Positions 23,402 through 57,718 of a stretch of DNA of 57,833 bases are shown in pieces. Every line of letters starts with the position of its first letter. The stretch's first letter is position 1. Made by a program: the position numbers and the translations under genes. The stretch lies in IMG/VR virus record IMGVR_UViG_3300033145_000723, positions 1-57,833 of that record; one strand, given 5' to 3'. This DNA comes from a virus. Its lineage: Duplodnaviria; Caudoviricetes. The notes under the pieces were generated by a model, which saw only the letters and a list, made by a program, of their open reading frames with translations, did not search any database and was not told the DNA's origin.

Positions 23402-24889
23402 TCATCTTCTCCTACTCCTCTGCTTTCGAGGTGCGTTGCTCCTCTTCTTCAAACCGCCGATGACTTTACGCTTACCAAAGAGCTTTGCAAATGCTGCACT
23501 ACTCGCATCGATTTGATCTTTGAACTTTGCGAAGGGGAAGAACTGCATTTCGTTTATGTACTCAAGATTCCATGGAGCAATGAGGATGATTACATTCCCA
23601 CCGTTGACTTGAACTGCAAACGGGTCTGCTCTGAAAACCTTATCGCCTCTCGGAAGGTCTGCAACGATTGAGTATCCCGCAAGATTTCGTACCGTGTTCT
23701 GCGCCGATTCTTTTCCACCGCTTCCAGGTTCTTGCTCTACTCCAATTTCAACTTCAGGGCCATCCATCTTAGCTGTGTTCTTGATAATCTTCTCGCGCGT
23801 GAATGCTTCCCATTGTCCACGCACCACATCAAGAATCCAAAACCGTCCTCCTAAATCCCATCCCATTTTTATGCCAACAGTATAGGCACCATCTCCACCC
23901 GTTCCTGCCTTATCCCAAAAGCGTACCACTCGTTTAAACTTTCGTCTAGCGGGTGCTACCTTTTCGTACTGCAGATTCTCCACCTTGAACATACCACCTT
24001 CAAGCGGTACTGGGTTCTGTCCTGCTTGCCCCGCGTATCCAAACTCACCCAAATCAGCACGGAGAGATTTGAGTACAACTCTGTCCAGTCTCACCGGATC
24101 AAGTAGACCATCTTTGTAAAACCTTCTGACATGTCCAGGCTTTACATTGTCAGCCAACTCAGCAGGTAAACAGATATGCCGAATCTTACTTGCCTTTTTC
24201 TCAATCATGTTTCCGGTGGGATCATTCTGATGTAGTCGCTGCATGATTAAAATCGTTGGCGTGACTCGTTTGTTGACCTTTCGAGTTGGTAGTGTTTCAG
24301 ACATCCATGCGTTGACCTTTTTCAAATCTGCTTCCGACTTGGCACCTTGCGGGTCTAACGGATCATCGATGATAATTATATGAGCATGCATCCCAGTGAT
24401 CGTACCGCCAACCCCTACGCACATTCTTGAACCGCCTAGCGTGTTCATGAAGTGCTGCTTGCCAAACTGTTCTGGGGAGAGACGGACTTCAGGAAATGCC
24501 GCGCGGTATTTATCTGAGTTGATAACCTCTCTGGTTCTTCTGCTTAATTCCATCGCAAGGAAAAATGTGTAGCTCCCGCAAATGATTTTGTACTTTGGTT
24601 TAATAGTCCAGACCCACGCGGGAAACATCACGCTACAAATTGTGGACTTGGTTGAACCGGGAGGAACGTTGATAATCACATCATGTTTTTTCGGAAGACC
24701 TGCAAAGACACGTTCAGCAGTTTTTTGTAGTTCGTTACAAATAAATTCGATATGCCAATTCCAAACCGGATCATCTGGAATGATTGTATCCCAAAATTCC
24801 TTGACGAATTCATAGAACGATTCGCGACAAATAGATTGAATCAAATCGTCTTCACTGTAACTAGGTTGCGCTAGAGAGGCATCAACCAA
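23402..24889 (-). CDS. terL: Terminase large subunit
   Basis: NWHIEFIC, INVPPGSTKS (Walker A), IIIIDDP (Walker B), IMQRLH, QNP, WDKA, EQEPGSGGK, FPFAKFKDQIDA nuclease motifs. Confidence 0.96.
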   Translation of the reverse strand: MVDASLAQPSYSEDDLIQSICRESFYEFVKEFWDTIIPDDPVWNWHIEFICNELQKTAERVFAGLPKKHDVIINVPPGSTKSTICSVMFPAWVWTIKPKYKIICGSYTFFLAMELSRRTREVINSDKYRAAFPEVRLSPEQFGKQHFMNTLGGSRMCVGVGGTITGMHAHIIIIDDPLDPQGAKSEADLKKVNAWMSETLPTRKVNKRVTPTILIMQRLHQNDPTGNMIEKKASKIRHICLPAELADNVKPGHVRRFYKDGLLDPVRLDRVVLKSLRADLGEFGYAGQAGQNPVPLEGGMFKVENLQYEKVAPARRKFKRVVRFWDKAGTGGDGAYTVGIKMGWDLGGRFWILDVVRGQWEAFTREKIIKNTAKMDGPEVEIGVEQEPGSGGKESAQNTVRNLAGYSIVADLPRGDKVFRADPFAVQVNGGNVIILIAPWNLEYINEMQFFPFAKFKDQIDASSAAFAKLFGKRKVIGGLKKRSNAPRKQRSRRR

Positions 24890-25574
24890 CTTTATCCCCT
24901 CGCATTTTCTTGGAGTCGCGTACTGCCTTGAGTAGTTTCTTGCGAACGTCTAACGGAAGTTCAATATCATCCATGAGAACAATATGCTGAGCCACCATAG
25001 CACGAACATCAATTTCATTCTTCTGAACAGGTCTCCCGTCAATTCGATTCCAAAGATCGGCGGCATGGGTCGAGGAGCCGCGCAAAGTTTGTGCAATCTG
25101 GGCATGAACTACGCAATCAAAAACCGTAGAGGTTGCAGCGTTGATGTTTTCCTTTTCACAATATTGAATCGTCTCTTGAAGTTGGTTCGCTGGCATGCGC
25201 ATAATCTCACGCAAGCGCATGGTCAAACTTTCGACTCGTGGGGTGCGAGCAAAGTCACCACCTTTCCGCATCATCACAGACTTCGGAAGAACTGAGAGCG
25301 GACGTTTTGCAGCGGCATCAATTTCATTCGTTGCCATTACAGCGGCATCAAGTATGTCAACTTCCTTTGGCTTTCCCTTGCCTCTCCTTCTGGGGGGAGA
25401 GGTGGCTTTTGTTGACTTCTTCTTTGCCACTTTTTTCTTGGTGACTTTTTTCTTGGTTGTCTTCTTCTTTTTCTTTATCATCATGCCTCTACCATGGAAT
25501 ACGAAATCTGAATAGCAAACCCTTAATCGGTGCCAGAACAGTATTGTCTCAAACTCCAAAACAACTGAACTCAT
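24882..25574 (-). CDS. Putative terminase small subunit with Lys-rich N-terminus (likely start at 25484)
   Basis: Directly upstream of TerL; LWNRIDGRPVQK motif common in TerS; KKVTKKKVAKKK tract. Confidence 0.65.
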   Translation of the reverse strand: MSSVVLEFETILFWHRLRVCYSDFVFHGRGMMIKKKKKTTKKKVTKKKVAKKKSTKATSPPRRRGKGKPKEVDILDAAVMATNEIDAAAKRPLSVLPKSVMMRKGGDFARTPRVESLTMRLREIMRMPANQLQETIQYCEKENINAATSTVFDCVVHAQIAQTLRGSSTHAADLWNRIDGRPVQKNEIDVRAMVAQHIVLMDDIELPLDVRKKLLKAVRDSKKMRGDKVG

Positions 25575-25660
25575 AATGCCCTATGCCTAGCGTACTATAC
25601 CTATGCGTTGTATTCTTATAATTCTTTTTGTCATAAACCTATGAAACATATAATTACGTA
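25575..25660. promoter_or_regulatory. Divergent AT-rich promoter region
   Basis: Strand-switch point; TATAAT at 25649-25654 on plus and TATAGT on minus near 25594-25599; -35 spacings imperfect. Confidence 0.4.
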
Positions 25661-25692
25661 TGTCGTTCGTTTATCTCTGGAAAGGGGAAAGT

Positions 25693-25899
25693 ATGAGTGA
25701 AGAGAATCCTGAATGGTGTCCAACGTGTGCAGAACCAATTGGAAATTTGAGTAGAGATGGCAAGAAGTGTAACAAGTGCGGCGCTATCGGTTGCTACCTT
25801 TGTATGCCAACTCCAAGCACTTGTCAAAACTGTTGGGATGCTGCAGTGTACCGCTACTCGAATGGTATCGTAGGAAAACCGAAAGGAAATGCTCAATGA
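25693..25899 (+). CDS. Small Cys-rich (zinc-binding) protein
   Basis: Four CxxC pairs. Confidence 0.7.
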   Translation: MSEENPEWCPTCAEPIGNLSRDGKKCNKCGAIGCYLCMPTPSTCQNCWDAAVYRYSNGIVGKPKGNAQ

Positions 25900-26129
25900 G
25901 TAAAGTCAGTCAAATTCGTTTGCGAATCCTAGCGCACTACCAAGAAGTTTTGTTCCGTCTCTGGTACAAGGTAGAGCTAGGCTTTTACGATAGCCGCTCC
26001 GAAATCGGTGACCTGGCCCTCGAAATGCGCGACACCTATTACAAACACGAAAGCATATTCAATGTTGAGTATGGTGCATGGAGAGAGCAGGAAATAGCAA
26101 AGAAAGGAAAAGCAAATGGTGGAACCTGA
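25896..26129 (+). CDS. Hypothetical protein
   Basis: Start MSKVSQ overlapping the upstream stop. Confidence 0.6.
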   Translation: MSKVSQIRLRILAHYQEVLFRLWYKVELGFYDSRSEIGDLALEMRDTYYKHESIFNVEYGAWREQEIAKKGKANGGT

Positions 26130-26355
26130 ACAGTATAACGATGCACGAAAGATATCAGCAGGACTCACTGAATATGACAGGAGGAAAAAGATAGTGGATA
26201 AGACAAAGCGAACAACAATTCAACTCTCTGCATTATTCCTTGCGGGTGCTATCAGTGAAATGTCTGAGTATATGCAGGACGTAACTACAGCCGACATATT
26301 CCTTGAGGCACTAATCAAAGGCTTAGAGAAAGAAAGGAAAGACCGCTATGCCTAA
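26116..26355 (+). CDS. Hypothetical protein
   Basis: 79-aa ORF overlapping neighbours. Confidence 0.6.
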   Translation: MVEPEQYNDARKISAGLTEYDRRKKIVDKTKRTTIQLSALFLAGAISEMSEYMQDVTTADIFLEALIKGLEKERKDRYA

Positions 26356-26578
26356 ACGATCAAAGAAGCAGGACAAACTTGGAGTCAGAGCACATACAAA
26401 AAAGGGTTGCAAGCATTTGTTCATCCCGAATATCTCAGAGGAAACTAAACGCCGGTTTAAATCTGCCTGTAGTGTGGCAGGGCATTCCATGACGCATGTC
26501 ATCACATCTTTCATGGTTAAGTATTCTGACCTCCAACTCATTCCCGGTAAAGGTGAACAGGAAGGAGAGGAACCATAG
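26348..26578 (+). CDS. Ribbon-helix-helix DNA-binding protein (Arc/ParG-like)
   Basis: KHLFIPNISEETKRRFKSAC...GHSMTHVITSFMVKY fits the beta-alpha-alpha RHH pattern. Confidence 0.72.
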   Translation: MPKRSKKQDKLGVRAHTKKGCKHLFIPNISEETKRRFKSACSVAGHSMTHVITSFMVKYSDLQLIPGKGEQEGEEP

Positions 26579-26682
26579 AAGCGCACAAGTATCATTCGTT
26601 CAATCGGTGCAACTTATGCTAACAAATATCATCGATGCTCTTCGATGTTATCTGTTCTACGTGATGCAACGCGATGCTCTCT

Positions 26683-26864
26683 CTTGTATTTCAAAACGCC
26701 CTGCTCTACCCCCCAATAGGGTGTCTTATCTTACTCTCTTTACTACTTTATAGAATATAGAATATAGGTTATGCATAAGTAAGAGTATCTATATTGGGGG
26801 GGTGGAACCGGTCGTTTTCAAATACAAGTAGCGAGACAGAAACGCCCTGTTCTTGCCCCCCAAT
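26683..26864. repeat. Imperfect inverted repeat around an AT-rich core plus a third direct copy (candidate origin or packaging site)
   Basis: cttgtatttcaaaacgccctgctctaccccccaat (from 26683) versus attgggggggtggaaccggtcgttttcaaatacaag (to 26828); aaacgccctgttcttgccccccaat at 26840-26864. Confidence 0.7.
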
Positions 26865-27109
26865 GAAAAGGGGAATCGTGCTACCTGGGCGCACCCTGGG
26901 CGCAATTGTACTAAGGGGGTCCGAGGGGGGTCAAGACCGGAAACCCCCTATTTTTCGGGTCTTTTCTCCCTCTCTTGTACGATTACTAAAATAATCGAAC
27001 GAATAATAACGCCTGTAACATAGGGCTTTCGTAACGACTTGCAAGACCGTCTCCACAACTCCTTTAATACCAGTCGGTTAAAATCCTCAGAATCTTTCAG
27101 AGAATTATC

Positions 27110-27165
27110 TTGCTATCGGTCGAGAATCGGCTATTATTGTTAATGTATTAAACGTTCATTGACAA
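27110..27165 (+). promoter_or_regulatory. Putative early sigma70 promoter followed by a boxA-like antitermination element
   Basis: TTGCTA (27110)-N16-TATTAT (27132); GTTCATTGACAA at 27154-27165 resembles rrn/nut boxA (GCTCTTTAACAA). Confidence 0.6.
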
Positions 27166-27690
27166 CCGGGTTTGGAACGCAGGAGGGCGGCAAAGCCAAA
27201 CAACCCCCATGAGAGGGTGAGGCGTTGCAGTCATCTGCCAGACAAACTTTTATCTGCCTATGGTAAGACGAGAGAATTTCCAACCTCTCAACCAGTTACC
27301 TTGAATGGCTGCAAGCGAACCGCAGAGCGTTCGCAAAAATGGCTTTGGTCCTACGCCTAGCTTAACAGCAAAGACCGCCTATCTAAAATTCTGCACGAAA
27401 GCACTAACGAGAATTCAGTCAAACTTATCTGCCACCAAATAACTCCCTCTGAGAGAGTGAGGTGGTAATTCCTACAAACAGATAACGCAAGCGAAACTGT
27501 CACTTGCAAGACTGAATGAAACTCTATGACTTTCTGTTATCGTGAGGGACCGGGAACGGAGATCAGAACTCGGATAGGAATTTCGTTGAATCGAAACGCA
27601 CAAAATCGAACGCGCAAATCAAAAATAGATTCGGTTCGTGAGTGCGTCTCAGGAATTGGCAACCCTGACTGAAGAGATGCCAAACGGAAG
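27166..27690 (+). ncRNA. Large structured non-coding RNA or 5' leader of unknown family
   Basis: No credible ORF; many complementary helices, a duplicated covarying hairpin module, a GNRA loop, a long-range closing helix and a potential pseudoknot (see findings). Confidence 0.65.
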
Positions 27691-27718
27691 TTAGTTCAGA
27701 ACCACAGGGAGATGGAAA

Positions 27719-27889
27719 ATGGCAAAGAAAACAAAGAAACAAATACAAAAGCTTTGGGCTAAACAGGAAAAGGCATGGACAAAGTGGCGTGAGCAATTTA
27801 CTGAATTTGAAAAAGAACACCTTCGTGATTTAATTATCCGGGAGCATCATCAGGATATGACAAAGATTTACGATGAAAGAATCGGTTGA
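27719..27889 (+). CDS. 56-aa early protein absent from the ORF track
   Basis: Translated by hand: MAKKTKKQIQKLWAKQEKAWTKWREQFTEFEKEHLRDLIIREHHQDMTKIYDERIG*, with SD GGGAG. Confidence 0.7.
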   Translation: MAKKTKKQIQKLWAKQEKAWTKWREQFTEFEKEHLRDLIIREHHQDMTKIYDERIG

Positions 27890-27954
27890 AAACTTCACCC
27901 CACTCATTCGAGTGAGGCTCTGCAGTTAATTCAGAAGCACAAAGGAGAAAGACC

Positions 27955-28308
27955 ATGTTCGTATCAAACGTATCGATGCAAGACATGCGCACCGCACTCG
28001 GCAACCTCGAAAGAAAGTACGGCGGGAACATTTTGTTTGCGAAGATCGAACAGAAATCAAAAGTCAGAATTCAGTTCACTCTGAAAGTTGACTGCGCGAG
28101 TGGACATGGTTCAGCGCGTTCGCGCTCTGGACGCAAAACTGGTTCGGCTTGCTGGCATGCTCATGGTCATTTCTTTGATGCTCTGATGAAAGTCAATACG
28201 CATGCAATCGTCACCACTCGCGACACGCAAAAGATTTCGATCTACGGTGGTAACTGGCAAGACAACAACAATATGAAAAGTCTCTGCGAGTGTGAAGCGA
28301 AGAACTAA
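27955..28308 (+). CDS. Early hypothetical protein (Cys/His motif)
   Basis: ACWHAHGHFFDAL...CEC; strong SD. Confidence 0.8.
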   Translation: MFVSNVSMQDMRTALGNLERKYGGNILFAKIEQKSKVRIQFTLKVDCASGHGSARSRSGRKTGSACWHAHGHFFDALMKVNTHAIVTTRDTQKISIYGGNWQDNNNMKSLCECEAKN

Positions 28309-28332
28309 TTCAAATCCAAAAAGCGAAAACGC

Positions 28333-28361
28333 AACCCTCCACCCATTCGGGTGGGGGTTTT
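28333..28361 (+). terminator. Hairpin with short U-tract between early genes
   Basis: cctccaccc-attc-gggtggggg followed by tttt. Confidence 0.6.
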
Positions 28362-33471: not shown

Positions 33472-34182
33472 ATGGCACAACGGAAAAAGAAGTTCAAGGT
33501 AACGAAAAGGAAAACGGTTGTCAAAAAGAAACCGAAGAGCTTGAAAGAGCGACTAATCGAAATGAAGTTATCCTCTCTCAATTTCCATCCAAAGAATCCG
33601 CGAGACCACGATGAAGGAAATCTCAAGGATATCATGGAGAGCTATGAAAACTTTGGAGAGATGCAACCGGTTGTCGTTTGGGGAATGAAAAATTATGTCA
33701 TTGTTGGTAACGGTAGGCTAGAAGCTGCAACCCGCCTTGGTTTGAAAGTTCTTTCTATAGTTCGTGCGGATCATCTTACAAAAGATGAAGCCGAATCATA
33801 CATGATCGCAGATAACAAATCGAGTGATTCCAGTAAGTTCAATAAGGAATTGCTTGCTGATATGTTCCAAGGTCTTCATGGACGTGGAGCAGATTTATCT
33901 CAGACGGGTTTCAGCCGGTTTGAAATTGAACCGCTGATTACTCCTGATGATGGAAACCATGATTTTTCACAGTTCGAAGATGAGATTGAAAAACTCTCTG
34001 GGGAGGACAGAGTTATAATCGGCGTGGAGGTTCAAGTGAAATTTGTGGAGCGAGTCACTGAGTGGCTTGCAAATGGGGAAAAGAAAACGGCATCCGGTTT
34101 AGGAAAAGGAGTAATGAAAAGATGCGGATTGCGCTCATCGAAGTCAAAAGTAAAGGTGAACTCTTCCCGATCCAGTTCCTAA
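33472..34182 (+). CDS. ParB/Srx-like N-terminal domain protein
   Basis: HPKNPRDH, SYENFG..QPVVV, IVGNGRLEAA, YMIADNK, DLSQTGF. Confidence 0.9.
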   Translation: MAQRKKKFKVTKRKTVVKKKPKSLKERLIEMKLSSLNFHPKNPRDHDEGNLKDIMESYENFGEMQPVVVWGMKNYVIVGNGRLEAATRLGLKVLSIVRADHLTKDEAESYMIADNKSSDSSKFNKELLADMFQGLHGRGADLSQTGFSRFEIEPLITPDDGNHDFSQFEDEIEKLSGEDRVIIGVEVQVKFVERVTEWLANGEKKTASGLGKGVMKRCGLRSSKSKVKVNSSRSSS

Positions 34183-35279
34183 AGATTGGGGCAATGCTCA
34201 GAAAGAAAAAGCACAAGGTGACACTTTTCAAGAACAAGCCACCGAAAGAACCAAAACGCTACGATGAAATTTGGCTCAGTGTCATTTTTACTTATGACTA
34301 TGAGTTGACTCACAAAATCGTGAGTGCGATTCGTGCAATGACAAAAGGGAAGAAGGTCAAACTTAAACTTGGGGGAACCGCGCCATCAATTTTCCCAGAA
34401 CAATTCAAGCATCTCGGCATCCCAATTCATACCGGTCTCATTCCAGAAGCGGAAAAGTGTACCCCCGATTACAGTTTGTTGGAAGAGGACTATGATTATT
34501 CAATCGGGTGGACTTCTCGCGGGTGCGTTCGGAAGTGTAAGTTTTGCGCCGTGCCAGTTGTTGAACCAAAGTTTTATCATGTAGACTGGTTCAAGAATAT
34601 TAACAAAACGAAAAAGAAGATTCTGTTCTACGATAACAACTGGTTGGCAAAGTCAAAGAAAGTCTTGAAGAAAGATGTTGAGCAAATGGTGCAACTTCAA
34701 GAGGAGTTTGGAATCACAGAGATCGATTTCAATCAAGCTCTTGACGCGCGTCTAATGACTGAAGAGATTGCAGATATTATTGCACCGGTAAAGCTGAGTC
34801 CAGTTCGTTTTGCGTTCGATGGAATGTGGGAAGATGGTTTGTGGCAGAATGCAATTAAGATGATGATTGATCGGGGATTTCGCACTTACAATAGTTTGGT
34901 GCTGTACAATTTCAAAGACACGCCAGAAGATTTGTACTATCGAATTCGTGAGCATGCAAGAATGACAAAGTTGATGGGGGGTAGTGATCTTGTCAAAGCT
35001 TTCCCCATGCGCTACCAACCACTCAAGATGATCAAACGTGATTTTCTGGGTGAGAATTGGACACGAAAGGAACGCTCTGCATTCCTACGCATCGTTTCGA
35101 TCCATGGAAGTTCTGGAACTGTCTCTTGCAGGAATCTAAACGAATTTGAATATTGGTTTGGGAAAAACGACAAAGAATTTAAAGCTCTGCTTAACTACCC
35201 GAGACTAAATGAACTTTTATTAAAACGCAAAGGGTATCTCATGGCAAATCGTGCCAAGGTGATAGAGGCTAAGAGATGA
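34122..35279 (+). CDS. Radical SAM enzyme with N-terminal cobalamin-binding-like domain; start MRIALI
   Basis: FPIQFLKIGAML, LSVIFTY, LGG.APS, TSRGCVRKCKFC (CX3CX2C), FYDNN, DFNQALDARL, RFAFD, FPMRYQP. Confidence 0.88.
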   Translation: MRIALIEVKSKGELFPIQFLKIGAMLRKKKHKVTLFKNKPPKEPKRYDEIWLSVIFTYDYELTHKIVSAIRAMTKGKKVKLKLGGTAPSIFPEQFKHLGIPIHTGLIPEAEKCTPDYSLLEEDYDYSIGWTSRGCVRKCKFCAVPVVEPKFYHVDWFKNINKTKKKILFYDNNWLAKSKKVLKKDVEQMVQLQEEFGITEIDFNQALDARLMTEEIADIIAPVKLSPVRFAFDGMWEDGLWQNAIKMMIDRGFRTYNSLVLYNFKDTPEDLYYRIREHARMTKLMGGSDLVKAFPMRYQPLKMIKRDFLGENWTRKERSAFLRIVSIHGSSGTVSCRNLNEFEYWFGKNDKEFKALLNYPRLNELLLKRKGYLMANRAKVIEAKR

Positions 35280-39167: not shown

Positions 39168-39247
39168 TATTCGTCTGGGGGAGAGCATGAAGATTGGTAG
39201 GGACCAAATCTTTGCAGTTCGCTCTCACCCCAGACACTTTTGGAGGG

Positions 39248-46904: not shown

Positions 46905-47620
46905 CACTTTTTTCAAAAGCAAACCTTGTCGTGAGTCAAGTGGCAAGTAAAGACAAATTCGACAAGGGATTAAGTGGAGTGCAATTTGAACCAGATGGTT
47001 CCACCGTTGCAGGGAACGGTAGAGTCCTCATGGCAGTTGGACCCGCGAACGAAGACAAGATTCATTTTCCAGATGTAGGAGAGCGCGACTCTCCTGGAAA
47101 AAGTGGCGTGGTCCTGAGTGTTAATTTTGTCACTGAGGCGTTAAAGAATCTTCCAAAGGACAAACGAATTTCTCTTCAACATGTTGCTATGACAAAAGCA
47201 AAGAGTTCAGGAAAGAAAGAGTTCACTTGTATTACTGGGGGAGGGTTGGAGCGGAGAGTTGCCGATAAACCTATGCGGGAGGTGTACCCGAATTGGAAAG
47301 GTGTCATCAAAAAGGTTCGCGGTGATGATCCTGTCAAAGTTTGTGTTAATCGGCGTGACTTGATCGATCTTCTAAAAGCTCTTGAGTCTGCTTGCCCAGA
47401 TAAAGGAAATGAAAATCCACTCTTCCTTGAGATCAACAAAGGAATTGTTCTTCGATGCTTTAACCGGGAGACCGGTCAACATGCTATCGGCGCTATCAAT
47501 GCTTTCAACACTCAAGGGCATTGGATGGAACGCGACGAATGGGAGAAGAGTATTTTTCAAAAGAACATGTTACCAAAGCGGAAGAAATTCACCGTCAAGA
47601 AAAGGGGAGAGAAGAAATGA
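46901..47620 (+). CDS. DNA sliding clamp (beta-clamp)-like protein
   Basis: LSGVQFE...TVAGNGRVL...YPNWKGVI...VCVNRRDLIDLLK resembles LNGV...VATDGHRL...YPNYR.VI...V.VNR..L of DnaN. Confidence 0.72.
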   Translation: MTLFSKANLVVSQVASKDKFDKGLSGVQFEPDGSTVAGNGRVLMAVGPANEDKIHFPDVGERDSPGKSGVVLSVNFVTEALKNLPKDKRISLQHVAMTKAKSSGKKEFTCITGGGLERRVADKPMREVYPNWKGVIKKVRGDDPVKVCVNRRDLIDLLKALESACPDKGNENPLFLEINKGIVLRCFNRETGQHAIGAINAFNTQGHWMERDEWEKSIFQKNMLPKRKKFTVKKRGEKK

Positions 47621-48645
47621 AACGTGCACTCATTACTGGAATCACTGGACAAGATGGAAGCTATCTAACCGAATTACTTCTGGGGAAAGGGTACGAGGTT
47701 CACGGTATCATTCGCAGAGCGTCGAACTTTAATACGCAAAGAATTGAACACCTCTATGAAGACAGTCATGAAAAAGGTGTAAGACTTTTTCTTCACTTCG
47801 GTGACATGGCAGATGGAAACGGACTTCATAAAATTGTGAATGAAGTTGAACCACATGAAGTTTACAACCTTGCAGCGCAAAGTCATGTTGCAGTCAGTTT
47901 TAAGCAACCAGAATATACCGCTAACATTGTGGCAACAGGAACACTCAGGTTACTTGAAGCAGTTTGGCAATTTGAAAAAGCAAGAAAACAAGCAGTCAGA
48001 TTTTACCAAGCGGGAACGAGTGAGATGTTTGGTAACGGAACAACAGTTCAAAATGAATCCACTCGGTTCAATCCCTGCAGTCCCTACGCAATCAGTAAAG
48101 TTGCGGCGCATCATTATTGCGTGAACTACCGAGAGGCACACGGTATGTTTGTCTGTAATGGCATCCTCTTCAATCACGAGAGTCCAAGACGCGGTGAAAC
48201 TTTTCTTACCAGGAAAATCACTCGCGCAATGACTCGCATCCGTGTGGGAATCCAAGATGAAATTTACCTTGGAGATTTAACAACGGAACGCGATTGGGGT
48301 CATGCAAAAGATTACGTGCTGGCAATGTGGCTTATGCTACAGCAAGATTGTCCAAACGATTATGTTATTGCAACTGGAGAAGCGCATACCGGACAAGAGT
48401 TCTTAGAGTTTGTTTGTGATATTCTGGAGCTTAACTGGAGAAAGTACTTTCGGTTTGATGAACGGTACTGTAGACCTCGTGACGTTTACTCCCTCTGTGG
48501 TGACGCAGAGAAAGCACGAAGGTGCCTGAATTGGAAACCAGAAATTCCTTATGGAAACATGGTTGCTGAAATGGTTGCGCAGGATATGAAGCTTGCGCTT
48601 GAAGAAAAGTTGACTATTGAAAACTTTGGAGACGAAACGAAATGA
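47617..48645 (+). CDS. gmd: GDP-mannose 4,6-dehydratase
   Basis: ALITGITGQDGSYL, YNLAAQSHV, YQAGTSEMFG, PCSPYAISK, NGILFNHESPRRGETF, RDWGHAKDYV. Confidence 0.98.
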   Translation: MKRALITGITGQDGSYLTELLLGKGYEVHGIIRRASNFNTQRIEHLYEDSHEKGVRLFLHFGDMADGNGLHKIVNEVEPHEVYNLAAQSHVAVSFKQPEYTANIVATGTLRLLEAVWQFEKARKQAVRFYQAGTSEMFGNGTTVQNESTRFNPCSPYAISKVAAHHYCVNYREAHGMFVCNGILFNHESPRRGETFLTRKITRAMTRIRVGIQDEIYLGDLTTERDWGHAKDYVLAMWLMLQQDCPNDYVIATGEAHTGQEFLEFVCDILELNWRKYFRFDERYCRPRDVYSLCGDAEKARRCLNWKPEIPYGNMVAEMVAQDMKLALEEKLTIENFGDETK

Positions 48646-51031: not shown

Positions 51032-51670
51032 TTATACCCAAACTGGTTTTCCGTTATCATCAAATTGCTGACCTACAAAACCTTCCCACGGTTCATGTTT
51101 AGGAAATGGTTGCGCGTCACCCCATGCCTTACGAATGGGTACAGACGAATGACGCAAGAGACTATTTTGAATCTGGGGTAAAACGATTCGCGCGAGTAAC
51201 TTCATATCACCAACTCGCGGAATCGGTCTCCTGAATCGCATCTTTAATGGGCAAGGTTGCGCGAGTACCTTCCCCATCACTCCCCACATCCCACCAAAAA
51301 TTGGAAGGCTTGCATGATGTACATGATCGTGCATGCAGTGAGCTTTCTTCCCTGATTGAATCCAATGTTCAACAGCTGCCGCCTCTCGCGGGTTAATGCG
51401 AGAGTCAGTATCACGGAAGATAACCCGCTCAACTTTCTCATCCCACGCTGGCAAAAACCTCCAAAGCATTCCAGAATGAAGATTACTCTTTCCCATCCTG
51501 TGAATCTCTACCCCTAACCTCTTCAATTTTGAAGTAGGAGTTCTGTCCTCACAATAGACAACCATTTTCCATCCTGGATAAACCGATGACATAAGTTTGG
51601 CGTTTTCGATAGCGCCTTGAACGTACATCGGTTTCTTGCCATAGACAGAAAAACTAACTACCTGTTTCAT
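51032..51670 (-). CDS. Putative GT-A glycosyltransferase (paralogue of 52271-52912)
   Basis: SFSVYG, GAIENA, YPGW, GMLWRFLP, IFRDTDSR (DxD), MHDH.HH, GGMWG. Confidence 0.7.
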   Translation of the reverse strand: MKQVVSFSVYGKKPMYVQGAIENAKLMSSVYPGWKMVVYCEDRTPTSKLKRLGVEIHRMGKSNLHSGMLWRFLPAWDEKVERVIFRDTDSRINPREAAAVEHWIQSGKKAHCMHDHVHHASLPIFGGMWGVMGKVLAQPCPLKMRFRRPIPRVGDMKLLARIVLPQIQNSLLRHSSVPIRKAWGDAQPFPKHEPWEGFVGQQFDDNGKPVWV

Positions 51671-52286
51671 ATCCCCATTCCTTTGCAACGGGTCCGCACT
51701 TCTCAGCCATCAATTCATATCCCCATGGAGGAATAATAGATCGCCAAAGACCAGGAGTTACGGTACCGATATGTCCTGGACCCATACGAAATCTATTCTC
51801 ACCTTTCACTACCGGTTGAGCACACCGCTTTCTATTCTTGTCCAAACTAAACTTATCCTTGATCGTGTCGCGTAAAGCCATCGGTACAATTTTGTTCAAT
51901 CGTTCCTCAATCAAATCGAAAATCAAATCGTAATTGTTGTAGAAATCCTCATAGCGTAGCAGAGCCATTTCAGGAAGTTCCTTAACCCATGCAGTAAGCG
52001 GAGCAAAATGTTTTATCATTTCATTTAACTCTGCATCAAGTCCTGCAAGATTCGCAATGTTGACAAGACCAGTTTGGTCTCTAAGTGTTCTATGTCTGAA
52101 TCGACTCGCACCAACATCGTAAGGATTTCGAATGGTCACAATAATGAAACTTCCATCCGGTTCCCATGCGGCGGGATGCGTCTTGCCAATTTTTACTTTT
52201 GGGAATACCTCACTGATTAACTGCCAAACCAACGTTGACCCTGAACGTGGAATTCCCCCTACTGTAATTTTCATATCTTCGGCCAT
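51654..52286 (-). CDS. Sulfotransferase (PAPS-dependent)
   Basis: GIPRSGST (5'-PSB loop), KTH, IRNPYD..AS (3'-PB), RYEDF, G.W. Confidence 0.88.
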   Translation of the reverse strand: MAEDMKITVGGIPRSGSTLVWQLISEVFPKVKIGKTHPAAWEPDGSFIIVTIRNPYDVGASRFRHRTLRDQTGLVNIANLAGLDAELNEMIKHFAPLTAWVKELPEMALLRYEDFYNNYDLIFDLIEERLNKIVPMALRDTIKDKFSLDKNRKRCAQPVVKGENRFRMGPGHIGTVTPGLWRSIIPPWGYELMAEKCGPVAKEWGYETGS

Positions 52287-52912
52287 ACTGCTTTCCCCCC
52301 ATCATCAAACTGCTGTCCAACGAAACCTCTCCATGACTTATGAGCAGGGAAAGGAAGATGTTCCCATTCAACGGGAACGGAACTATGCCGCATCAAACTA
52401 TTTTTTATGTGTGGCCAAATGTACAAACGCAAAAGATGCAAATCAGAAGTACCTCTTTCGAGGTGTGACATATAGCGAGTCCAAGGGTACATGATATTCG
52501 GGAGGATGTTCCCTTTCACTCCCATCATCCCACTCATCAAATACAAACTCTGGTGATGGGGATGGTCATGCATGCAATGTGCGTCTAGCCCAGAATTTTC
52601 CCATTCCATAACCGCCGCTGATTCTCGTGGTCCAATTCTGGAATCTGCATCTCGAAAAATAACTCTCTCCACCCCCTCCAGCCACGCCGGTAGAAATCGC
52701 CAAAGCATCCCAGAGTGAAGATGTGAAATTCCCATACGTTCGATAACACAACCTAACGCTTCAAGATCAGTTGTATCTACATCATCAGCAGCAAAAACTC
52801 GCATCTGCCACCCTGGATAAATTCGCGGCATGAGCTTTGCATTTTCTAATGCACCGTTAAGGTATCTTGGAGATTTCCCATAGAGAGGGAAACTCACAAT
52901 CTTCAAGCCCAT
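52271..52912 (-). CDS. Putative GT-A glycosyltransferase (paralogue of 51032-51670)
   Basis: SFPLYG, GALENA, YPGW, GMLWRFLP, IFRDADSR, MHDHPHH. Confidence 0.7.
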   Translation of the reverse strand: MGLKIVSFPLYGKSPRYLNGALENAKLMPRIYPGWQMRVFAADDVDTTDLEALGCVIERMGISHLHSGMLWRFLPAWLEGVERVIFRDADSRIGPRESAAVMEWENSGLDAHCMHDHPHHQSLYLMSGMMGVKGNILPNIMYPWTRYMSHLERGTSDLHLLRLYIWPHIKNSLMRHSSVPVEWEHLPFPAHKSWRGFVGQQFDDGGKAVWPKI

Positions 52913-53676
52913 TCCAAAATCCTTTCTCTCCAATAACCCATGTCCAATTTTTTCATAGAGTCATGCGAGAATCTCTCGTGTAGTTTTGCGTGCTCATTCA
53001 TCAAAAGTCTTTCAGTTACTTGCGCCCAATGATCAATTCTGAGGCAAGGCATATCTGCAAGGATATCTGTAGCTCGTGAACGAATCACAATAGGAATGGA
53101 GCCTAGTGCAATCGCTTCCCAATGCCTATGGCAATCCGGTCCTGCTCCTGGAGGTGAGATCGTGAACGGATGGTGCCTCATGTCTTGATAGAAAATATCT
53201 GCAGGGATATGTTCAAAGCCTCCCTTTGCTGTGATCCAAGGTCCCCCACCAAGAAGTTCATAGATTCCCTCGCGCGGATTTGGATTGCAAGGAATGTTTC
53301 TCAAGAAACACATGGTGCAAGTATTCACAGGCGGTTGCACTCCCAGAGAAATTTGATCTGAAAGAATCTGTTCTTTCTCTACGCTCTGGAGCATTCCAAT
53401 TGGAATTGCAGTAACCTTCGGATGCGTGGTCTCTACGTTATTCGAAAACCAATGCTCTACATTTTTCGGGAGACGGTTTGCCATTCGAGTTGTTACGATA
53501 GCATCTGAGAATGATGTAAGCAAAACGCAAGGCCCAAACGTAGAGAGTTGTTTGAACTGCTTCCTTATGGAATGCGTTCTGCAATAAACGAATCGACCTG
53601 GAAGCGCAATCTCTTGAGCATAGTTTGCTCCAGCGATATCCGCAACTCTCTGGTTATTGACTGGTTGAAAATTCAT
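52903..53676 (-). CDS. Exostosin/GT47-like glycosyltransferase
   Basis: HWFSNN, IPIG, FTISPPGAGPDCHRHWEAIALGSIPIV. Confidence 0.8.
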   Translation of the reverse strand: MNFQPVNNQRVADIAGANYAQEIALPGRFVYCRTHSIRKQFKQLSTFGPCVLLTSFSDAIVTTRMANRLPKNVEHWFSNNVETTHPKVTAIPIGMLQSVEKEQILSDQISLGVQPPVNTCTMCFLRNIPCNPNPREGIYELLGGGPWITAKGGFEHIPADIFYQDMRHHPFTISPPGAGPDCHRHWEAIALGSIPIVIRSRATDILADMPCLRIDHWAQVTERLLMNEHAKLHERFSHDSMKKLDMGYWRERILEWA

Positions 53677-54269
53677 TTCGTTTTCCTTCTAAACTCACCG
53701 AAGAAACGATTGTCAGAACGCACACCATTATTTACAGTTGGAGATGGAATCACACGAATGGTTTCAAAGTGTCGCTCAAATTCTTCTTGTAGTTTTGGAA
53801 ATTGATCGTTCGCATGAGACTCAAAGAAAAGCGTTCCTCCCTGGAAGAGAAGAGACGCAACCTTTGCAAGATAATGTTCAAAAGGAACCTGAGTATAGTA
53901 CCAAACGGCGAATGAAAATAAAACATCATACTTCACTTTGATACTCATAGTGACAAAGGAACCAACTTCAAAAGAGCAATTTGGAAAGGGGTAAAGATGC
54001 CGCGCGAGATCGATAGATTCAGGGTCTATATCAATCCCATGATAGCCACTACAAGACTTCGAACAGAAACGGGAGAATCCCCCGATATTGCATCCAACGT
54101 CCAGGATACTCTTGCTCTGGATGTTCTCAGGAGAGATATCGTAAAGCTTCCAACGTGTTTCCATATCACGAGTGGCACCCGCTACCCCCTCGACACTCTG
54201 GTAAAGCTCACCCGATTCTGAGAAGCGTAGTTTCTTCTTGAGATATTCCTGGATCTTACTATCCATCAT
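53673..54269 (-). CDS. Class I SAM-dependent methyltransferase
   Basis: ILDVGCNIGGF, GIDID, YDVLF, GGTLFFES. Confidence 0.88.
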   Translation of the reverse strand: MMDSKIQEYLKKKLRFSESGELYQSVEGVAGATRDMETRWKLYDISPENIQSKSILDVGCNIGGFSRFCSKSCSGYHGIDIDPESIDLARHLYPFPNCSFEVGSFVTMSIKVKYDVLFSFAVWYYTQVPFEHYLAKVASLLFQGGTLFFESHANDQFPKLQEEFERHFETIRVIPSPTVNNGVRSDNRFFGEFRRKTK

Positions 54270-54717
54270 TTACCTTTCTGAATAAGGGAACTTGAGATGA
54301 AAGATTTAACAAAAGCTCAAAGAGAAACTTTGCCAAGGGGTCAAAAAGAATTTTGCATTTCTCGTCAAGCAAAAGACAAATATGATTCTCGCTTGACATA
54401 TAAAGTTGAGCTACCTTTCCAAATGGAAACTCTGCCATCTTTTCTTTGGTGAATCCTTCCGGTGTCTTTTGCAAAGGGTTGATGACACCATCTACAATCA
54501 CAGCTTCAATTGGAAAGTCAATTCTCTTTGCTGCACATAATCGATGCGTTCCATCAATCGCTTGATAATACTCACCGCAATCAACAAGTGGAATCGGACG
54601 AAAGCACCAACCATGTCTTTGCAATAACGATGCAAACAAACTAGCTTTATTCGGATAGGCTACATGATGCCCGCTCCAAATTGGCTTGCCTTTGTATTCG
54701 TAAGAAAAAAAGTCCAT
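54259..54717 (-). CDS. ParB/Srx-like domain protein
   Basis: SLLQRHGW...PI...YQAIDGTHRLCAAK. Confidence 0.75.
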   Translation of the reverse strand: MDFFSYEYKGKPIWSGHHVAYPNKASLFASLLQRHGWCFRPIPLVDCGEYYQAIDGTHRLCAAKRIDFPIEAVIVDGVINPLQKTPEGFTKEKMAEFPFGKVAQLYMSSENHICLLLDEKCKILFDPLAKFLFELLLNLSSQVPLFRKVNDG

Positions 54718-54725
54718 GAGATTCC

Positions 54726-55478
54726 TTACAGATAATTTCTTTCCACGAGTGCCTTCAAATTTTCATGCCGATCCCATTGATGAATCACGGTAGGAACTTC
54801 ACCAGCTATATTCAAAATCTTTTCTTCGTCAACTCTAACTGTCTCTCGTGGCATATATCCCACGGTGTAAACTTCACTCTTCTCACTCTCATGAATTTCG
54901 CCAGAGAACTTTCTTTGCCGGATGATATGATTGTGACAAGATTGATCTTGTGGTTTCGTCGTGAGATGCTGCAGTCTTTTGAGTTCATGCACGAGCTTGA
55001 GTAAATGCGCCGCTACATGTTCCCGACTACCGCAGAACGTTCCAACACAAGAGATAGGGAAATTTCTCAACCGATCAAGTTCCGTTTCTCCATAACCAAT
55101 ATCAACCCAATCAGAATTGTACGGGCAAGTTCCAATTGTCATGCAACGATCTTCTTCATAAGCATGGAATCCATTCGACTTCATTAGATCAGGATTCTTT
55201 TGAAAAATTACATCTCTCGTATCGCAACAAAGAACACCGTTGCAAGATATCTGCGCAAGAGCTTCCTGAATCCAATAGAATCTTTCTGCATGCGGAAGCG
55301 TTTTTACTGGGGGAGGTGTCCGCACATCTGCATCCCAGTCTTGTGCTTCTTTCGCTGCTCCTTTCGTTGCAAAAAGAATGACGCGCTTTTGGTATCCTGT
55401 TGCACGGAGACTTTTCAAGAACGGTCTGATCTGTTCCCGATTGTAACCAACAGCCGCACCAATAATACAATCAATCAT
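54726..55478 (-). CDS. Putative GT-A glycosyltransferase
   Basis: PFLKSLR.TG, ERF, CDTRDVIFQKNP, DQ..HN, VIHQWDR. Confidence 0.75.
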   Translation of the reverse strand: MIDCIIGAAVGYNREQIRPFLKSLRATGYQKRVILFATKGAAKEAQDWDADVRTPPPVKTLPHAERFYWIQEALAQISCNGVLCCDTRDVIFQKNPDLMKSNGFHAYEEDRCMTIGTCPYNSDWVDIGYGETELDRLRNFPISCVGTFCGSREHVAAHLLKLVHELKRLQHLTTKPQDQSCHNHIIRQRKFSGEIHESEKSEVYTVGYMPRETVRVDEEKILNIAGEVPTVIHQWDRHENLKALVERNYL

Positions 55479-56128
55479 GCTCTCTCTTTCTTTACATAGA
55501 TTCCATTCCCGCCGATGGTCAAAAGTTTCTGAACGTACCCACGCTCCACAAGTAAGTTGTCAATTTCTTCTGAGGGCAACCAAATCCCTTTGTCATTCTT
55601 TCGATCCACGTTTGTCATGTCCAGTGTCTCAATGCAAACTAAATCAGGATCGAAACTCCAATCCATCCCTAGAAGAACTTTGAAATCATGTCCCTCAGTA
55701 TCAATCTGAAGGTAATCGATTTTCGGTGGCGCGTAACTTGCAAGCAATTCTTCAAGGGTAAACGTCTCTACTGTTAACGGCGGTTCATAATTGATATGCT
55801 CCCACCAATTTTCACAACTCTGCGCCCACGCTTTTTCCAAAGTGGAGACACCATCACAGGGATAAAGAGTTGCTTGACCTCTTACGTCTGAACATGCAGC
55901 TTGAATACAAGTTACACCTTTTTCATTCTGGTAAGCGGTCTGAAGAAGTGCGAACGCTTTTGGAAGTGGTTCCACTAGCATTCCGCGCCAACCCTTGACC
56001 ATTAACTCTCGTGACATACTCCCACGCTCTACTCCATCGTGTGCACCGATATCAACCAAGTAACCAATTCGGTCACCGAAAAAATCAATGATGTAGTCAA
56101 GACCTAAATCATCAGGAGCCATTTTCAA
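55475..56128 (-). CDS. FkbM-family methyltransferase
   Basis: VDIGAHDG, GWRGMLVEP, IDYLQIDTEGHDFKVL. Confidence 0.92.
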   Translation of the reverse strand: MKMAPDDLGLDYIIDFFGDRIGYLVDIGAHDGVERGSMSRELMVKGWRGMLVEPLPKAFALLQTAYQNEKGVTCIQAACSDVRGQATLYPCDGVSTLEKAWAQSCENWWEHINYEPPLTVETFTLEELLASYAPPKIDYLQIDTEGHDFKVLLGMDWSFDPDLVCIETLDMTNVDRKNDKGIWLPSEEIDNLLVERGYVQKLLTIGGNGIYVKKERA

Positions 56129-56786
56129 CTTCCTCCAACTCTACAGTAAATCCCCAAAGCTTTTTTGCATGACAATCAACCACTCGCTGCAGTAACTCTA
56201 GGGGGAGAGGTCTATACGAAAATATATCAGTCCATGGAATACGATGAACTTTTGCAATGTATCCTTCTGGAGCAAAGCGATAATGGTACCAACCCACCAT
56301 GGCATCTTCAAGAAGTTCGTAGCAATAAAACTCTGGGCTATTCGGTTCAAGATCGTGGAGCACAACCAAATCTGCAAAAGGAGAAAGGTTGATAAATGCT
56401 GGCACTCGCGCGCAAGCAAATGTATCAACGAAAAGAAAATCAACGTGTGCAATCTTCAGTTCCTCTTCATACCAATGATCTACTTTCGCAAGTTCCTCAG
56501 GTGTTAAATCTGGGCGACGAATCCCATTGTGACAGGAACCGAAAGGATGGATGGTCCATTGATGCTTTTCCGTTGCGGGGAATTTCTTCTGCATCTTTCT
56601 TGCCCACGCAACATCATGCTCAATCGAATGCAGTTGCTCTGCGCAGTCATGAAGAATTGGGGTAGAGTATTCCCCACATCCACATTCAATCACACGTTCG
56701 GGCTTCATCACTTCAGCGATTGCATAGAGAACTGGTTTATGACTACCCCATGTCTGTTCAATTTCTTTCTTGGTACTGAGTGTCAT
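56112..56786 (-). CDS. Putative SAM-dependent (glycan O-)methyltransferase
   Basis: SHKPVL, VIECGCGEYST, SIEHD..W, FLFVD...AR, VVLHD. Confidence 0.75.
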   Translation of the reverse strand: MTLSTKKEIEQTWGSHKPVLYAIAEVMKPERVIECGCGEYSTPILHDCAEQLHSIEHDVAWARKMQKKFPATEKHQWTIHPFGSCHNGIRRPDLTPEELAKVDHWYEEELKIAHVDFLFVDTFACARVPAFINLSPFADLVVLHDLEPNSPEFYCYELLEDAMVGWYHYRFAPEGYIAKVHRIPWTDIFSYRPLPLELLQRVVDCHAKKLWGFTVELEEVENGS

Positions 56787-57718
56787 TTTCTACTCCCTTG
56801 CATAACTCCACAACACCAAACTTCATTGCAGGGGCTTCCAATTTCTTTGAAGTGCCTACCCTCTAACCGATGGATCAAAAGATTTCTTGCCTCTTCTTTA
56901 TGCATTGTAACCAAAGATTTTTCCATGACGTTTCCATAAGCCTGTTCTTGATTGCTATCCATGCAACATGGATACCAATTTCCTCTTGGAGAAATGAACG
57001 CTTCATTTTTAACTCGTGGGAGCATAGGGCACTGATAATTTTTTGGATCGCGTTCGATGGAACCACGTTCAGCCCATGCGAATGGTTTTGCTTGATTCAC
57101 TCCCACGGTATACGGTAACCATTCCAAACTCTTTTCCACTTCCTCAAATGAACTACTCTCCAAAGGAACCACTTTCAATTTCTGGGGGAGCTTACCGAAG
57201 TGCTTCAAGACTGCTTCAGTATAATCGTCAAGAGTAAGAACAGAAACCGCAAGTTGCGTCTCCCCTCCAGTATGCTCTTTCTCTCCCAAAAAATCTTTGA
57301 TGTTGCAAAACACTCGCGCAAGATTCAATCCCTTCTGAACAAAGTTAGTCTCGCGGTTGTGTCCGTCAATGTTCGTATGGATCACATCAATCAATCCCTC
57401 TTTCAAAATCACTCGTGACATTCGTTTTTGGAGATGACTGAAATTCGTTGCCATACTCATGCGCACTTTTGGCATCTTCCCTCGAATGAATCTGAGGATG
57501 GAGAGGAAAGCAGGATTAAGTGGGGCATCACCATTTTCCCCTACCTGAATTGTGTGAACCTCCCACGGGAAATCCTCTTGCACTACTTCGTTAATGACTC
57601 GTTGCGCTACTGTCAGCGGCATGTCTTCGTATTCATTTTTCCCCCTGTCCTCTGGACAGAAGACGCAGCTTGCAGTACAACGATTTGAAAGTGAAAGGTT
57701 CAAGCTAGTTATCGGCAC
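56783..57718 (-). CDS. Radical SAM protein with SPASM/twitch domain
   Basis: CTASCVFC, NGDAPL, TN, QCP...GNWYPCCMD...YGNV...PCNEVWC. Confidence 0.88.
   Translation of the reverse strand: MPITSLNLSLSNRCTASCVFCPEDRGKNEYEDMPLTVAQRVINEVVQEDFPWEVHTIQVGENGDAPLNPAFLSILRFIRGKMPKVRMSMATNFSHLQKRMSRVILKEGLIDVIHTNIDGHNRETNFVQKGLNLARVFCNIKDFLGEKEHTGGETQLAVSVLTLDDYTEAVLKHFGKLPQKLKVVPLESSSFEEVEKSLEWLPYTVGVNQAKPFAWAERGSIERDPKNYQCPMLPRVKNEAFISPRGNWYPCCMDSNQEQAYGNVMEKSLVTMHKEEARNLLIHRLEGRHFKEIGSPCNEVWCCGVMQGSRK

Follow-up and report, generated by a model that had tools for sequence, protein, structure and literature searches.

A string of stem-loops with paralogous tips in an orphan tailed phage: a possible modular leader of the rightward early genes

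What does a tightly packed phage genome keep in a long stretch that carries no gene? The question is raised by positions 27166–27690 of a complete IMG/VR virus record, a linear sequence of 57,833 nt with a completeness estimate of 89%, which we analysed as a whole and refer to as the window. A preliminary description of these positions had proposed a large, elaborately structured non-coding RNA at the head of the early operon, either new in kind or acting in cis as a processive antiterminator of the early transcript. If true, a large RNA or an RNA antiterminator would represent a rare class of protein-independent transcription control in a phage lineage that is entirely uncharacterised; the nearest cultured relatives reach identities of ≤28% in PolA and ≤40% in TerL. 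The analysis described here best supports a different answer, namely that the region is a structured early leader, a kind of element already known from phages, of which this example has no relatives.

The gene map places the region between two groups of + strand genes. Leftward late and structural genes, among them portal, the large terminase (23402–24889) and an adjoining ORF of 230 aa, begin at 25574. Four small + strand genes lie at 25660–26578, the last of which shows a weak match to ParG/ribbon-helix-helix proteins (E 1.4e-4). Genes on the + strand restart at 27719 and extend to ~51000; their products comprise a ParB-like protein, radical SAM, SNF2 helicase, UDG, a PD-(D/E)XK nuclease, AAA_24, DUF669, a family A DNA polymerase and a Toprim primase. 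The interval between the two groups and the start of the second are as follows:

26579–27718 (1140 nt), no strand: ORF-free gap, the largest non-coding stretch and the sole large gap of the gene map, with low codon scores
27706–27721, + strand: start of the first downstream gene, with Shine-Dalgarno sequence GGGAGA and ATG (gene at 27719–27889, product of 56 aa; codon score 0.449)

Intergenic gaps elsewhere in this genome are mostly <100 nt. The region under study forms the right half of the gap and is separated from the four upstream genes by palindromes, repeats and a terminator-like hairpin on the + strand (26937–26958); the left part holds a 25-nt repeat in three copies and a long palindrome, beside the ParG-like ribbon-helix-helix gene. 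To describe it as the head of the early operon, as had been proposed, is imprecise because four small + strand genes precede it.

The region 27166–27690 is non-coding. Codon log-odds of the ORFs in the gap range from −0.21 to −0.01, compared with 0.28±0.08 in 55 long genes and >0.15 in most small genes, and the period-3 power of the region is 0.43 (shuffles, 0.73±0.42; genome median, 2.41), with lower values in only 4 of 107 windows. None of 11 gap ORFs matched Pfam or PHROGs at E<0.05, and a search of the presumed leader at 27166–27690 for mini-ORFs or leader peptides with ATG and Shine-Dalgarno sequence returned none. Six tested gap ORFs are missing from a collection of ~15 billion proteins in which the four flanking genes are present; they were therefore not called by the gene caller of the source. 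Codon scores, periodicity and family searches thus all lack a coding signal and bear out the original reading that no credible ORF is present.

Known RNA families do not account for the region. Rfam 15 returned 0 matches across the window at gathering thresholds and 0 at E≤10 in 27140–27725, with ROOL, GOLLD, riboswitches, 6S and Y-RNA-like families among those unmatched; between 26600 and 28000 the only hits are three look-alikes of miRNA precursors at 26680–26830, outside 27166–27690. The group I and II introns, RNase P and tmRNA, whose signatures had been reported absent, likewise gave no Rfam match. A tRNA-like element was rejected, as ARAGORN found 0 tRNA or tmRNA genes.

Structure is evident at the level of local hairpins. 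All helices listed in the preliminary description are present in the sequence where it placed them, and the local helices of its multibranch domain and further stems recur in the minimum free energy (MFE) folds of both strands: GGTA/TACC, GAGAG/CTCTC, GCGAAC/GTTCGC, ATTCAGTC/GACTGAAT, TTATCTG/CAGATAA, CCACC/GGTGG, GCAAG/CTTGC, ACGCAC/GTGCGT and CGAAC/GTTCG. They are arranged in the following elements, where the boundaries used for the domain z-scores were picked from the fold itself:

27169–27248, + strand: domain 1, an irregular hairpin of ~25 bp with module 1 at its tip (−29.8 kcal/mol, z −2.44 on +; −27.2 kcal/mol, z −2.34 on −)
27262–27300, + strand: hairpin of GGTA/TACC around GAGAG/CTCTC, found in each strand's MFE fold (z only −1.0 for the 86 nt around it)
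27315–27334, + strand: hairpin GCGAAC/GTTCGC, in the MFE folds of both strands and in the pair probabilities
27413–27517, + strand: domain 2, a three-way junction (z −3.95 on +, −3.84 on −; pair probabilities >0.85)
27596–27647, + strand: domain 3, a hairpin of ACGCAC/GTGCGT, CGAAC/GTTCG and AATC/GATT (z −3.09 on +, −3.08 on −)
27656–27699, + strand: two 3′ hairpins that exclude each other, TTGGCA/TGCCAA (27656–27683) or CTGAA/TTCAG (27669–27699)

In domain 2, P1 is formed by ATTCAGTC/GACTGAAT and P3 by GCAAG/CTTGC, while the P2 arm, composed of TTATCTG/CAGATAA and CCACC/GGTGG, bears the second copy of a hairpin module that also tips domain 1:

27195–27223, + strand: module copy 1, GCC-AAACA-ACCC-CCATGAGA-GGGT-GA-GGC, at the tip of domain 1
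27434–27463, + strand: module copy 2, ACC-AAATA-ACTC-CCTCTGAGA-GAGT-GA-GGT, carried on the P2 arm of domain 2

Scanned with a structural descriptor, the whole 57.8-kb window contains exactly two copies of this module on its + strand, 239 nt apart; in its loosest form the descriptor gave a single, unrelated chance match when applied to 239,374 nt from other loci. Six substitutions and one indel separate the copies. Two compensated pairs (G-C to A-T; C-G to T-A) account for four of the substitutions, and no stem pair is altered on one side only, an outcome with a probability of 0.0047 under random (neutral) placement, or of 0.013 if only two doubly hit pairs are required. The earlier observation of a module that occurs twice with compensatory stem changes is confirmed. 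The two modules are paralogous, with their pairing kept, and this compensation is the best single piece of evidence for selection on pairing, although it fits either strand, and hairpins in DNA, equally well.

We compared the module with two recurrent RNA motifs. Its terminal loops, CCATGAGA and CCTCTGAGA, comprise 8–9 nt, or 3–4 nt if closed across a C-A mismatch. T-loops consist of a five-nucleotide U-(G/U)-N-R-A that starts from the 5′ side of the loop and is followed by two extra nucleotides, as in tRNA. The word UGAGA fits this consensus in both copies, but occupies the last loop positions on the 3′ side, where it abuts the stem. Kink-turns combine a 3-nt bulge with tandem sheared G-A and A-G pairs; in the module, the bulged strand AAA-CA (copy 1) or AAA-TA (copy 2) stands opposite GA and the first G-A pair is absent (C or T in its place), and a kink-turn was rejected.

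Two shorter hairpins of related sequence are found between genes of the + strand operon:

27894–27921, + strand: intergenic hairpin CCCCACTC-ATTC-GAGTGAGG, whose 3′ arm belongs to the octamer family of the modules
28333–28360, + strand: intergenic hairpin CTCCACCC-ATTC-GGGTGGGG with TTTT behind it, terminator-like on + and paralogous to the hairpin at 27894–27921

The octamer family GRGTGRGG, which was defined post hoc after its members had been seen, has eight members in the genome (4.3 expected), four of them on the + strand within 27215–28356. Each of these four is the 3′ arm of an ACYC...GRGT hairpin, and two of the hairpins are intergenic in the + operon.

Do these hairpins add up to one large RNA? 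As a whole, the region is only moderately more structured than chance. We folded a 561-nt stretch of the + strand and obtained −162 kcal/mol, compared with −143.7±5.7 kcal/mol in shuffled controls (z −3.23; 0 of 100 shuffles as good), an energy below that of the shuffles. The reverse complement reaches an MFE of −178.9 kcal/mol (z −3.47). We further derived a native background from 205 genome windows of 560 nt, folded on both strands (410 folds) with energy regressed on composition. The SD of these native windows is 10.2 kcal/mol, about twice that of the shuffles, and relative to them the region lies at −1.7 SD on the + strand (19th most stable of 410) and at −2.0 SD on the − strand (11th). 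In windows of 120 nt, the strongest + strand z is only −2.05. The + strand ensemble is average in both diversity (120.05 vs 119.97±31.2) and entropy (0.935 vs 1.003±0.258). Perfect helices are mildly more numerous than in shuffles at ≥6 bp (36 vs 24.9±4.9; fraction of shuffles reaching this count, 0.02) and at ≥7 bp (11 vs 6.0±2.5; 0.048); at ≥8 bp there are 4 vs 1.6±1.3 (0.094). The proposed 8-bp pseudoknot (27467/27575) belongs to this last, chance-level set and is not above expectation. Helices with competing partners exclude each other: TTCAGTCA can pair at 27510 or 27666, and AATTCCT at 27576 or 27651. The proposed long-range closing helix ccgggttt/gaactcgg requires two G-U pairs and appears in the MFE fold of neither strand.

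One elaborate 520-nt unit is thus disfavoured, because the + ensemble is average, the long-range helices are at chance and the stability is strand-symmetric, and separate modules are favoured over one large fold because the global + fold is ordinary and its long-range helices are near chance. What stands of the 'large, elaborate' RNA is a set of local hairpins, two of them paralogous; the single folded unit is weakened. We consider it very unlikely that the region encodes a single multi-domain non-coding RNA of ~520 nt and of a new class, in trans or in cis, processive antiterminators acting on host RNA polymerase included. The lack of ORFs and of Rfam families, the z of −3.23, the helix counts and the sister hairpins, in which loops are conserved and stem changes compensated, would all agree with such an RNA, but the rank of only 19th among 410 native windows, the average ensemble of the + fold, a pseudoknot, 8-bp helices and a boxA at chance level, a closing helix absent from the MFE folds and the lack of a homologue in any collection searched (see below) speak against it.

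Two observations would suit an antiterminator in particular. No RNA polymerase gene, of T7 type or otherwise, was found among 48 phage proteins scanned, and the terminator-like hairpin at 28333–28360, inside the early operon, would give an antiterminator a use. The transcription signals of the region give it no direct support. Two promoter-like sites were noted:

27110–27137, + strand: promoter-like site TTGCTA-16-TATTAT, a 9/12 consensus match, with a possible leader start near 27145
27362–27389, + strand: second promoter-like site TTAACA-16-TAAAAT, a consensus match only (10/12), 24 nt upstream of domain 2

The sigma70-like promoter named in the preliminary description is therefore present as a match of 9/12, but such sites occur at chance frequency (six in 3 kb vs 4.4±2.1 expected). 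Its boxA fares similarly: the boxA-like GTTCATTGACAA at 27154 has three mismatches to the 12-nt boxA core, and the window contains 57 matches at ≤3 mismatches, compared with 66.4±7.3 in shuffles. In boxB, a short stem is capped by a GNRA-like pentaloop. With boxA at chance and module loops of 8–9 nt, unlike this pentaloop, a lambda-type nut site was rejected. A search of 27166–27718 for terminator-like sites on the + strand found none, all such sites there being on the − strand; a classical attenuator or riboswitch design is therefore unsupported. In the partition function the Shine-Dalgarno segment 27701–27716 pairs with 27249–27264 at p>0.9. Sequestration of the Shine-Dalgarno sequence by TTATCTGCC was nevertheless rejected: its duplex energy of −18.7 kcal/mol is matched in 6.6% of shuffled leaders (n = 1000) and in 21% of other genome windows (n = 412).

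We next ask which strand would be functional. The evidence is mixed, and the + strand has the edge on context only. In favour of + are the orientation of the flanking genes and the 3′-arm octamer that the modules have in common with the two hairpins between + strand genes. The A-T skew rises from 0.00 at 27000–27165 to +0.217 at 27166–27690, close to the +0.207 of the downstream + strand genes. Wobble pairs, by contrast, are more frequent in the MFE fold of the − strand (19 of 164 pairs vs 5 of 155), and the tips of both modules, P3 and the hairpin at 27894–27921 are extended by G-U only on the − strand, the corresponding + strand positions being C-A. Such a G-U excess is to be expected of an A+C-rich + strand. 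The hairpin at 28333–28360, with a wobble pair and T-run on the + strand, and the lower stem of domain 1, with three G-U pairs on that strand, are cleaner on +. Both modules, P3 and domain 3 scored as terminator-like on the − strand, which carries 14 such sites in 3 kb (3.0±1.8 expected), and T-rich tails follow the − strand versions of the hairpins.

These values could be read as a functional − strand that encodes a leftward RNA, or leftward terminators or insulators. The lower MFE and the z of −3.47 agree with this, and so does the − strand ensemble, which lies among the best 5% of 96 background folds in diversity (71.5; 5% quantile, 79.5) and entropy (0.597; 0.659). We regard this as highly unlikely. 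The 23 kb to the right contain no − strand gene, no promoter-like site of good quality points leftward near 27700, and a leftward transcript would have to cross four + strand genes in antisense on its way to the late genes. With TGTTTGG and TATTTGG the T-tails are poor, the shuffle-corrected z is equal on the two strands, and the related intergenic hairpins, one with its wobble pair on +, lie inside the + operon.

Strand-symmetric stability also raises the question of function at the level of DNA. In a distant contig, L009, a 480-nt ORF-free gap folds with a z of −3.31 and is plainly a cluster of DnaA boxes (nine at ≤1 mismatch in 7 kb, of which the gap holds four; expectation, 1.4 in 7 kb). 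A z near −3, reached here on both strands and there by the DnaA-box region of another phage, does therefore not by itself indicate RNA. For the region at hand, a DNA-level control region would consist of operators, of promoters in tandem or of a segment of a replication origin, with the hairpins and repeated words (TTATCTG, ATCTGCC) as protein-binding sites or incidental. TTATCTG occurs 13 times in the window (6.7±2.5 expected) and four times in the 1.1-kb gap; a promoter-like site precedes each module-bearing domain by 24–32 nt; and the repeats and palindrome near the ParG-like gene would suit this design. We nonetheless consider it unlikely. Two of the four TTATCTG copies in the gap merely pair with each other in domain 2, and the compensated module changes suggest that selection has acted on pairing and not on a linear site. 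That a cassette of promoter and hairpin had been duplicated was rejected, since the surroundings of the promoter-like sites are dissimilar outside the module (62 of 166 aligned columns identical). A DnaA-box origin was rejected as well, with no TTATCCACA-like box at ≤2 mismatches in 27166–27690 and only three in the whole gap. L009 itself was discarded as a syntenic comparator, as it shares only one protein, of 117 aa, with this phage.

We also searched for relatives in which covariation might be seen. blastn against GenBank phages gave no DNA match. Searches of IMG/VR anchored on TerL yielded seven loci (31–55% identity) that are not syntenic, and those anchored on the 117-aa protein two loci in IMG/VR and seven in JGI metagenome contigs (32–46% identity); neighbouring proteins of 209 aa and 76 aa gave no loci in IMG/VR. 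The gap has no homologue in any of the fetched loci by blastn and nhmmer (best E 0.13). In one of them, L016, the gap upstream of the 117-aa homologue was rejected as a counterpart: it is an AT-rich promoter region (z −1.39) with a 46-aa ORF of its own. The module pattern has 0 matches in IMG/VR and two in GTDB genomes, both without complementary stems, and the pattern of the intergenic hairpins retrieved 12 stretches from IMG/VR that are similar in the hairpin only. The four flanking proteins form single-member clusters, each on one contig, this one, among ~15 billion proteins. A singleton sequence without transcripts or relatives cannot carry the claim of a structured RNA.

The region, for which these searches returned no relatives, may also be considered as a largely neutral spacer, for instance decayed early genes with surviving intergenic hairpins, that serves spacing only. 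Similar hairpins do separate the downstream early genes, and a stability only ~1.7–2.0 SD from native windows, with a 120-nt z of only −2.05 on the + strand, is in keeping with such a remnant. It is, however, distinctly unlikely in our assessment: 0.5–1.1 kb of neutral DNA is unexpected in an otherwise tightly packed phage genome, neither a residual period-3 signal nor protein similarity was detected, and the compensated changes imply purifying selection on the modules.

We therefore tentatively favour, with somewhat less than even confidence, a modular untranslated + strand leader of the rightward early and replication genes, with hairpins that probably act in cis. The non-coding character, the stable local hairpins (z −2.4 to −3.95; pair probabilities >0.85), the paralogous modules, the four + strand octamers near the start of the operon, an A-excess like that of the downstream genes, the placement between + strand genes and the end at a good Shine-Dalgarno sequence and ATG argue for this leader; the equal or stronger stability of the − strand, the unusually well-defined ensemble of that strand only and the chance frequency of promoter-like sites argue against it. 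We infer transcription of the region, its strand and the role of its hairpins. In such a scheme, 27166–27690 would form the A-rich leader with which an orphan tailed phage opens its rightward early/replication transcription unit, folded not into a single globular RNA but into a string of four to five independent stem-loops (27169–27248, 27262–27334, 27413–27517, 27596–27647 and 27656–27699), two of which would be tipped by paralogous hairpins similar to the pair of short ones that separate the first genes downstream. The hairpins might serve as cis signals, either as (i) repeated docking sites for one phage or host factor, or as (ii) processing or stability signals of RNase III or 5′-hairpin type, and would thereby set the amount or survival of the downstream mRNA.

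A more ambitious proposal, which we rate as highly improbable, is a new class of phage cis-regulatory RNA in which the two paralogous hairpins at the domain tips, with their A-rich asymmetric internal loop and UGAGA-ending terminal loop, cooperate. They might both dock on a common factor or on RNA polymerase, or might switch 27413–27421 and 27467–27474 from one competing partner to the other, and the effect would be terminator-resistant early transcription or timed early gene expression.

Several described systems offer comparisons for the favoured leader and its rivals. The put elements of phage HK022 are two-stem units of ~70 nt, one per operon, located just downstream of an early promoter, that confer terminator resistance in cis. 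By analogy with HK022 putL/putR and lambda nut, the present hairpins are promoter-proximal and form two sisters with similar loops and differing stems, for which action in cis is conceivable; their position behind promoter-like sites is compatible with a put-type element, though such sites occur at chance frequency. In contrast to put, both copies lie on one putative transcript, 239 nt apart and inside larger domains; in contrast to lambda nut, the boxA match is at chance and the 8–9-nt loops are not boxB-type pentaloops. ROOL and GOLLD are outlined as large ornate RNAs that are often phage-borne (PMC5737381; bioRxiv 10.1101/2024.12.08.627333). As far as these accounts go, the likeness consists in size class (hundreds of nucleotides), phage context and a biochemical role that is unknown; those families are defined by strong covariation over many homologues, whereas the searches here returned no homologue, there is no Rfam match, and the + fold is defined at background level.

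Further parallels come from hairpins of early regions. PeSL elements of T4-type phages are repeated promoter/stem-loop cassettes in lytic phages. The present family differs from them in having only four members, two with enlarged loops and an internal loop, and in showing no sign of mobility and, in the alignment, no associated promoter consensus; like PeSL elements, its hairpins are phage-specific, recur with the same orientation within the early region and in part follow promoter-like sites. The early leader of T7 runs from tandem host promoters A1–A3 through a hairpin processed by RNase III to the first gene. Our region has no sequence relation to that leader, its promoters are consensus matches at chance frequency and the scanned proteins include no T7-type RNA polymerase. 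Like T7, however, it places hundreds of non-coding nucleotides and tandem promoter-like sites before the first early gene; the leader hairpins are long and irregular, spanning about two helical turns, and those between the early genes are shorter.

The left part of the 26579-27718 gap, between the mini-operon of four small + strand genes and the rightward early operon that resumes at 27719, contains the following elements:

26683-26864: repeat of ~25 nt in three copies, pattern AAACGCCCTG.TCT..CCCCCCAAT
26884-26904: tandem of two CCTGGGCGCA copies, spacing 11 nt
26937-26958, + strand: terminator-like hairpin CCGGAAACCCCCTATTTTTCGG with T-rich tail, 3′ of the CCTGGGCGCA tandem

Repeat copies at 26694 and 26840 are direct, that at 26793 is inverted, and the repeats build a palindrome with 32-nt arms that is centred on an AT-rich TATAGAA tandem. 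Three of the four genomic occurrences of CCCCCCAA fall within this region, immediately upstream of which lies a ParG-like ribbon-helix-helix gene (26348-26578). We consider the repeats, which also account for weak Rfam matches to miRNA precursors, a candidate operator, centromere-like site or origin. The hairpin at 26937-26958 may terminate the mini-operon (25660-26578).

Downstream, further hairpins lie between genes, two of them on either side of a small early gene:

27894-27921: intergenic hairpin, arms CCCCACTC/GAGTGAGG, loop ATTC
27955-28308: 117-aa early protein with motif CWHAHGHF and several Cys/His
28333-28360: intergenic hairpin, arms CTCCACCC/GGGTGGGG, loop ATTC
39172-39236: long GC-rich stem-loop GTCTGGGGGAGAGC...GCTCTCACCCCAGAC, then ACTTTTGG

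The two intergenic hairpins are paralogous, with identical loops and one compensated change (T-A to C-G); TTTT directly follows the second, which looks like a + strand terminator within the early operon. The GC-rich stem-loop occupies a 231-nt gap upstream of the AAA_24 gene and is a possible terminator or regulatory hairpin separating early from replication genes.

The 117-aa protein, for which no Pfam or PHROGs family was found, has relatives (30–46%) in at least nine contigs of viral or metagenome origin, a diverse set whose GC content spans 28% to 65%; it is a widespread phage early protein without assigned family. L009, an unrelated-looking phage contig, has only this protein in common with the window phage.

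L009 3385-3865: ORF-free gap

Four DnaA boxes (3533, 3602, 3658 and 3714) lie inside this gap, nine occur across the L009 locus vs 1.4 expected, and the gap folds with z = -3.31. Its probable role is as a DnaA-dependent origin or in titrating DnaA.

Candidate modification genes are found further along the window:

33472-35279: ParB-like nuclease/partition protein overlapping a 405-aa protein
47521-48645, + strand: GDP-mannose 4,6-dehydratase
51032-57718, leftward: gene block encoding methyltransferases (FkbM among them), proteins resembling glycosyl/sulfo-transferases, and a radical SAM/SPASM protein

The dehydratase and the leftward block look like a phage-borne sugar or glycan modification cluster. 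The 405-aa protein, in which no Pfam domain was found, matches the PHROGs radical SAM family phrog_9298, and with its ParB-like partner possibly forms a DNA-modification pair.
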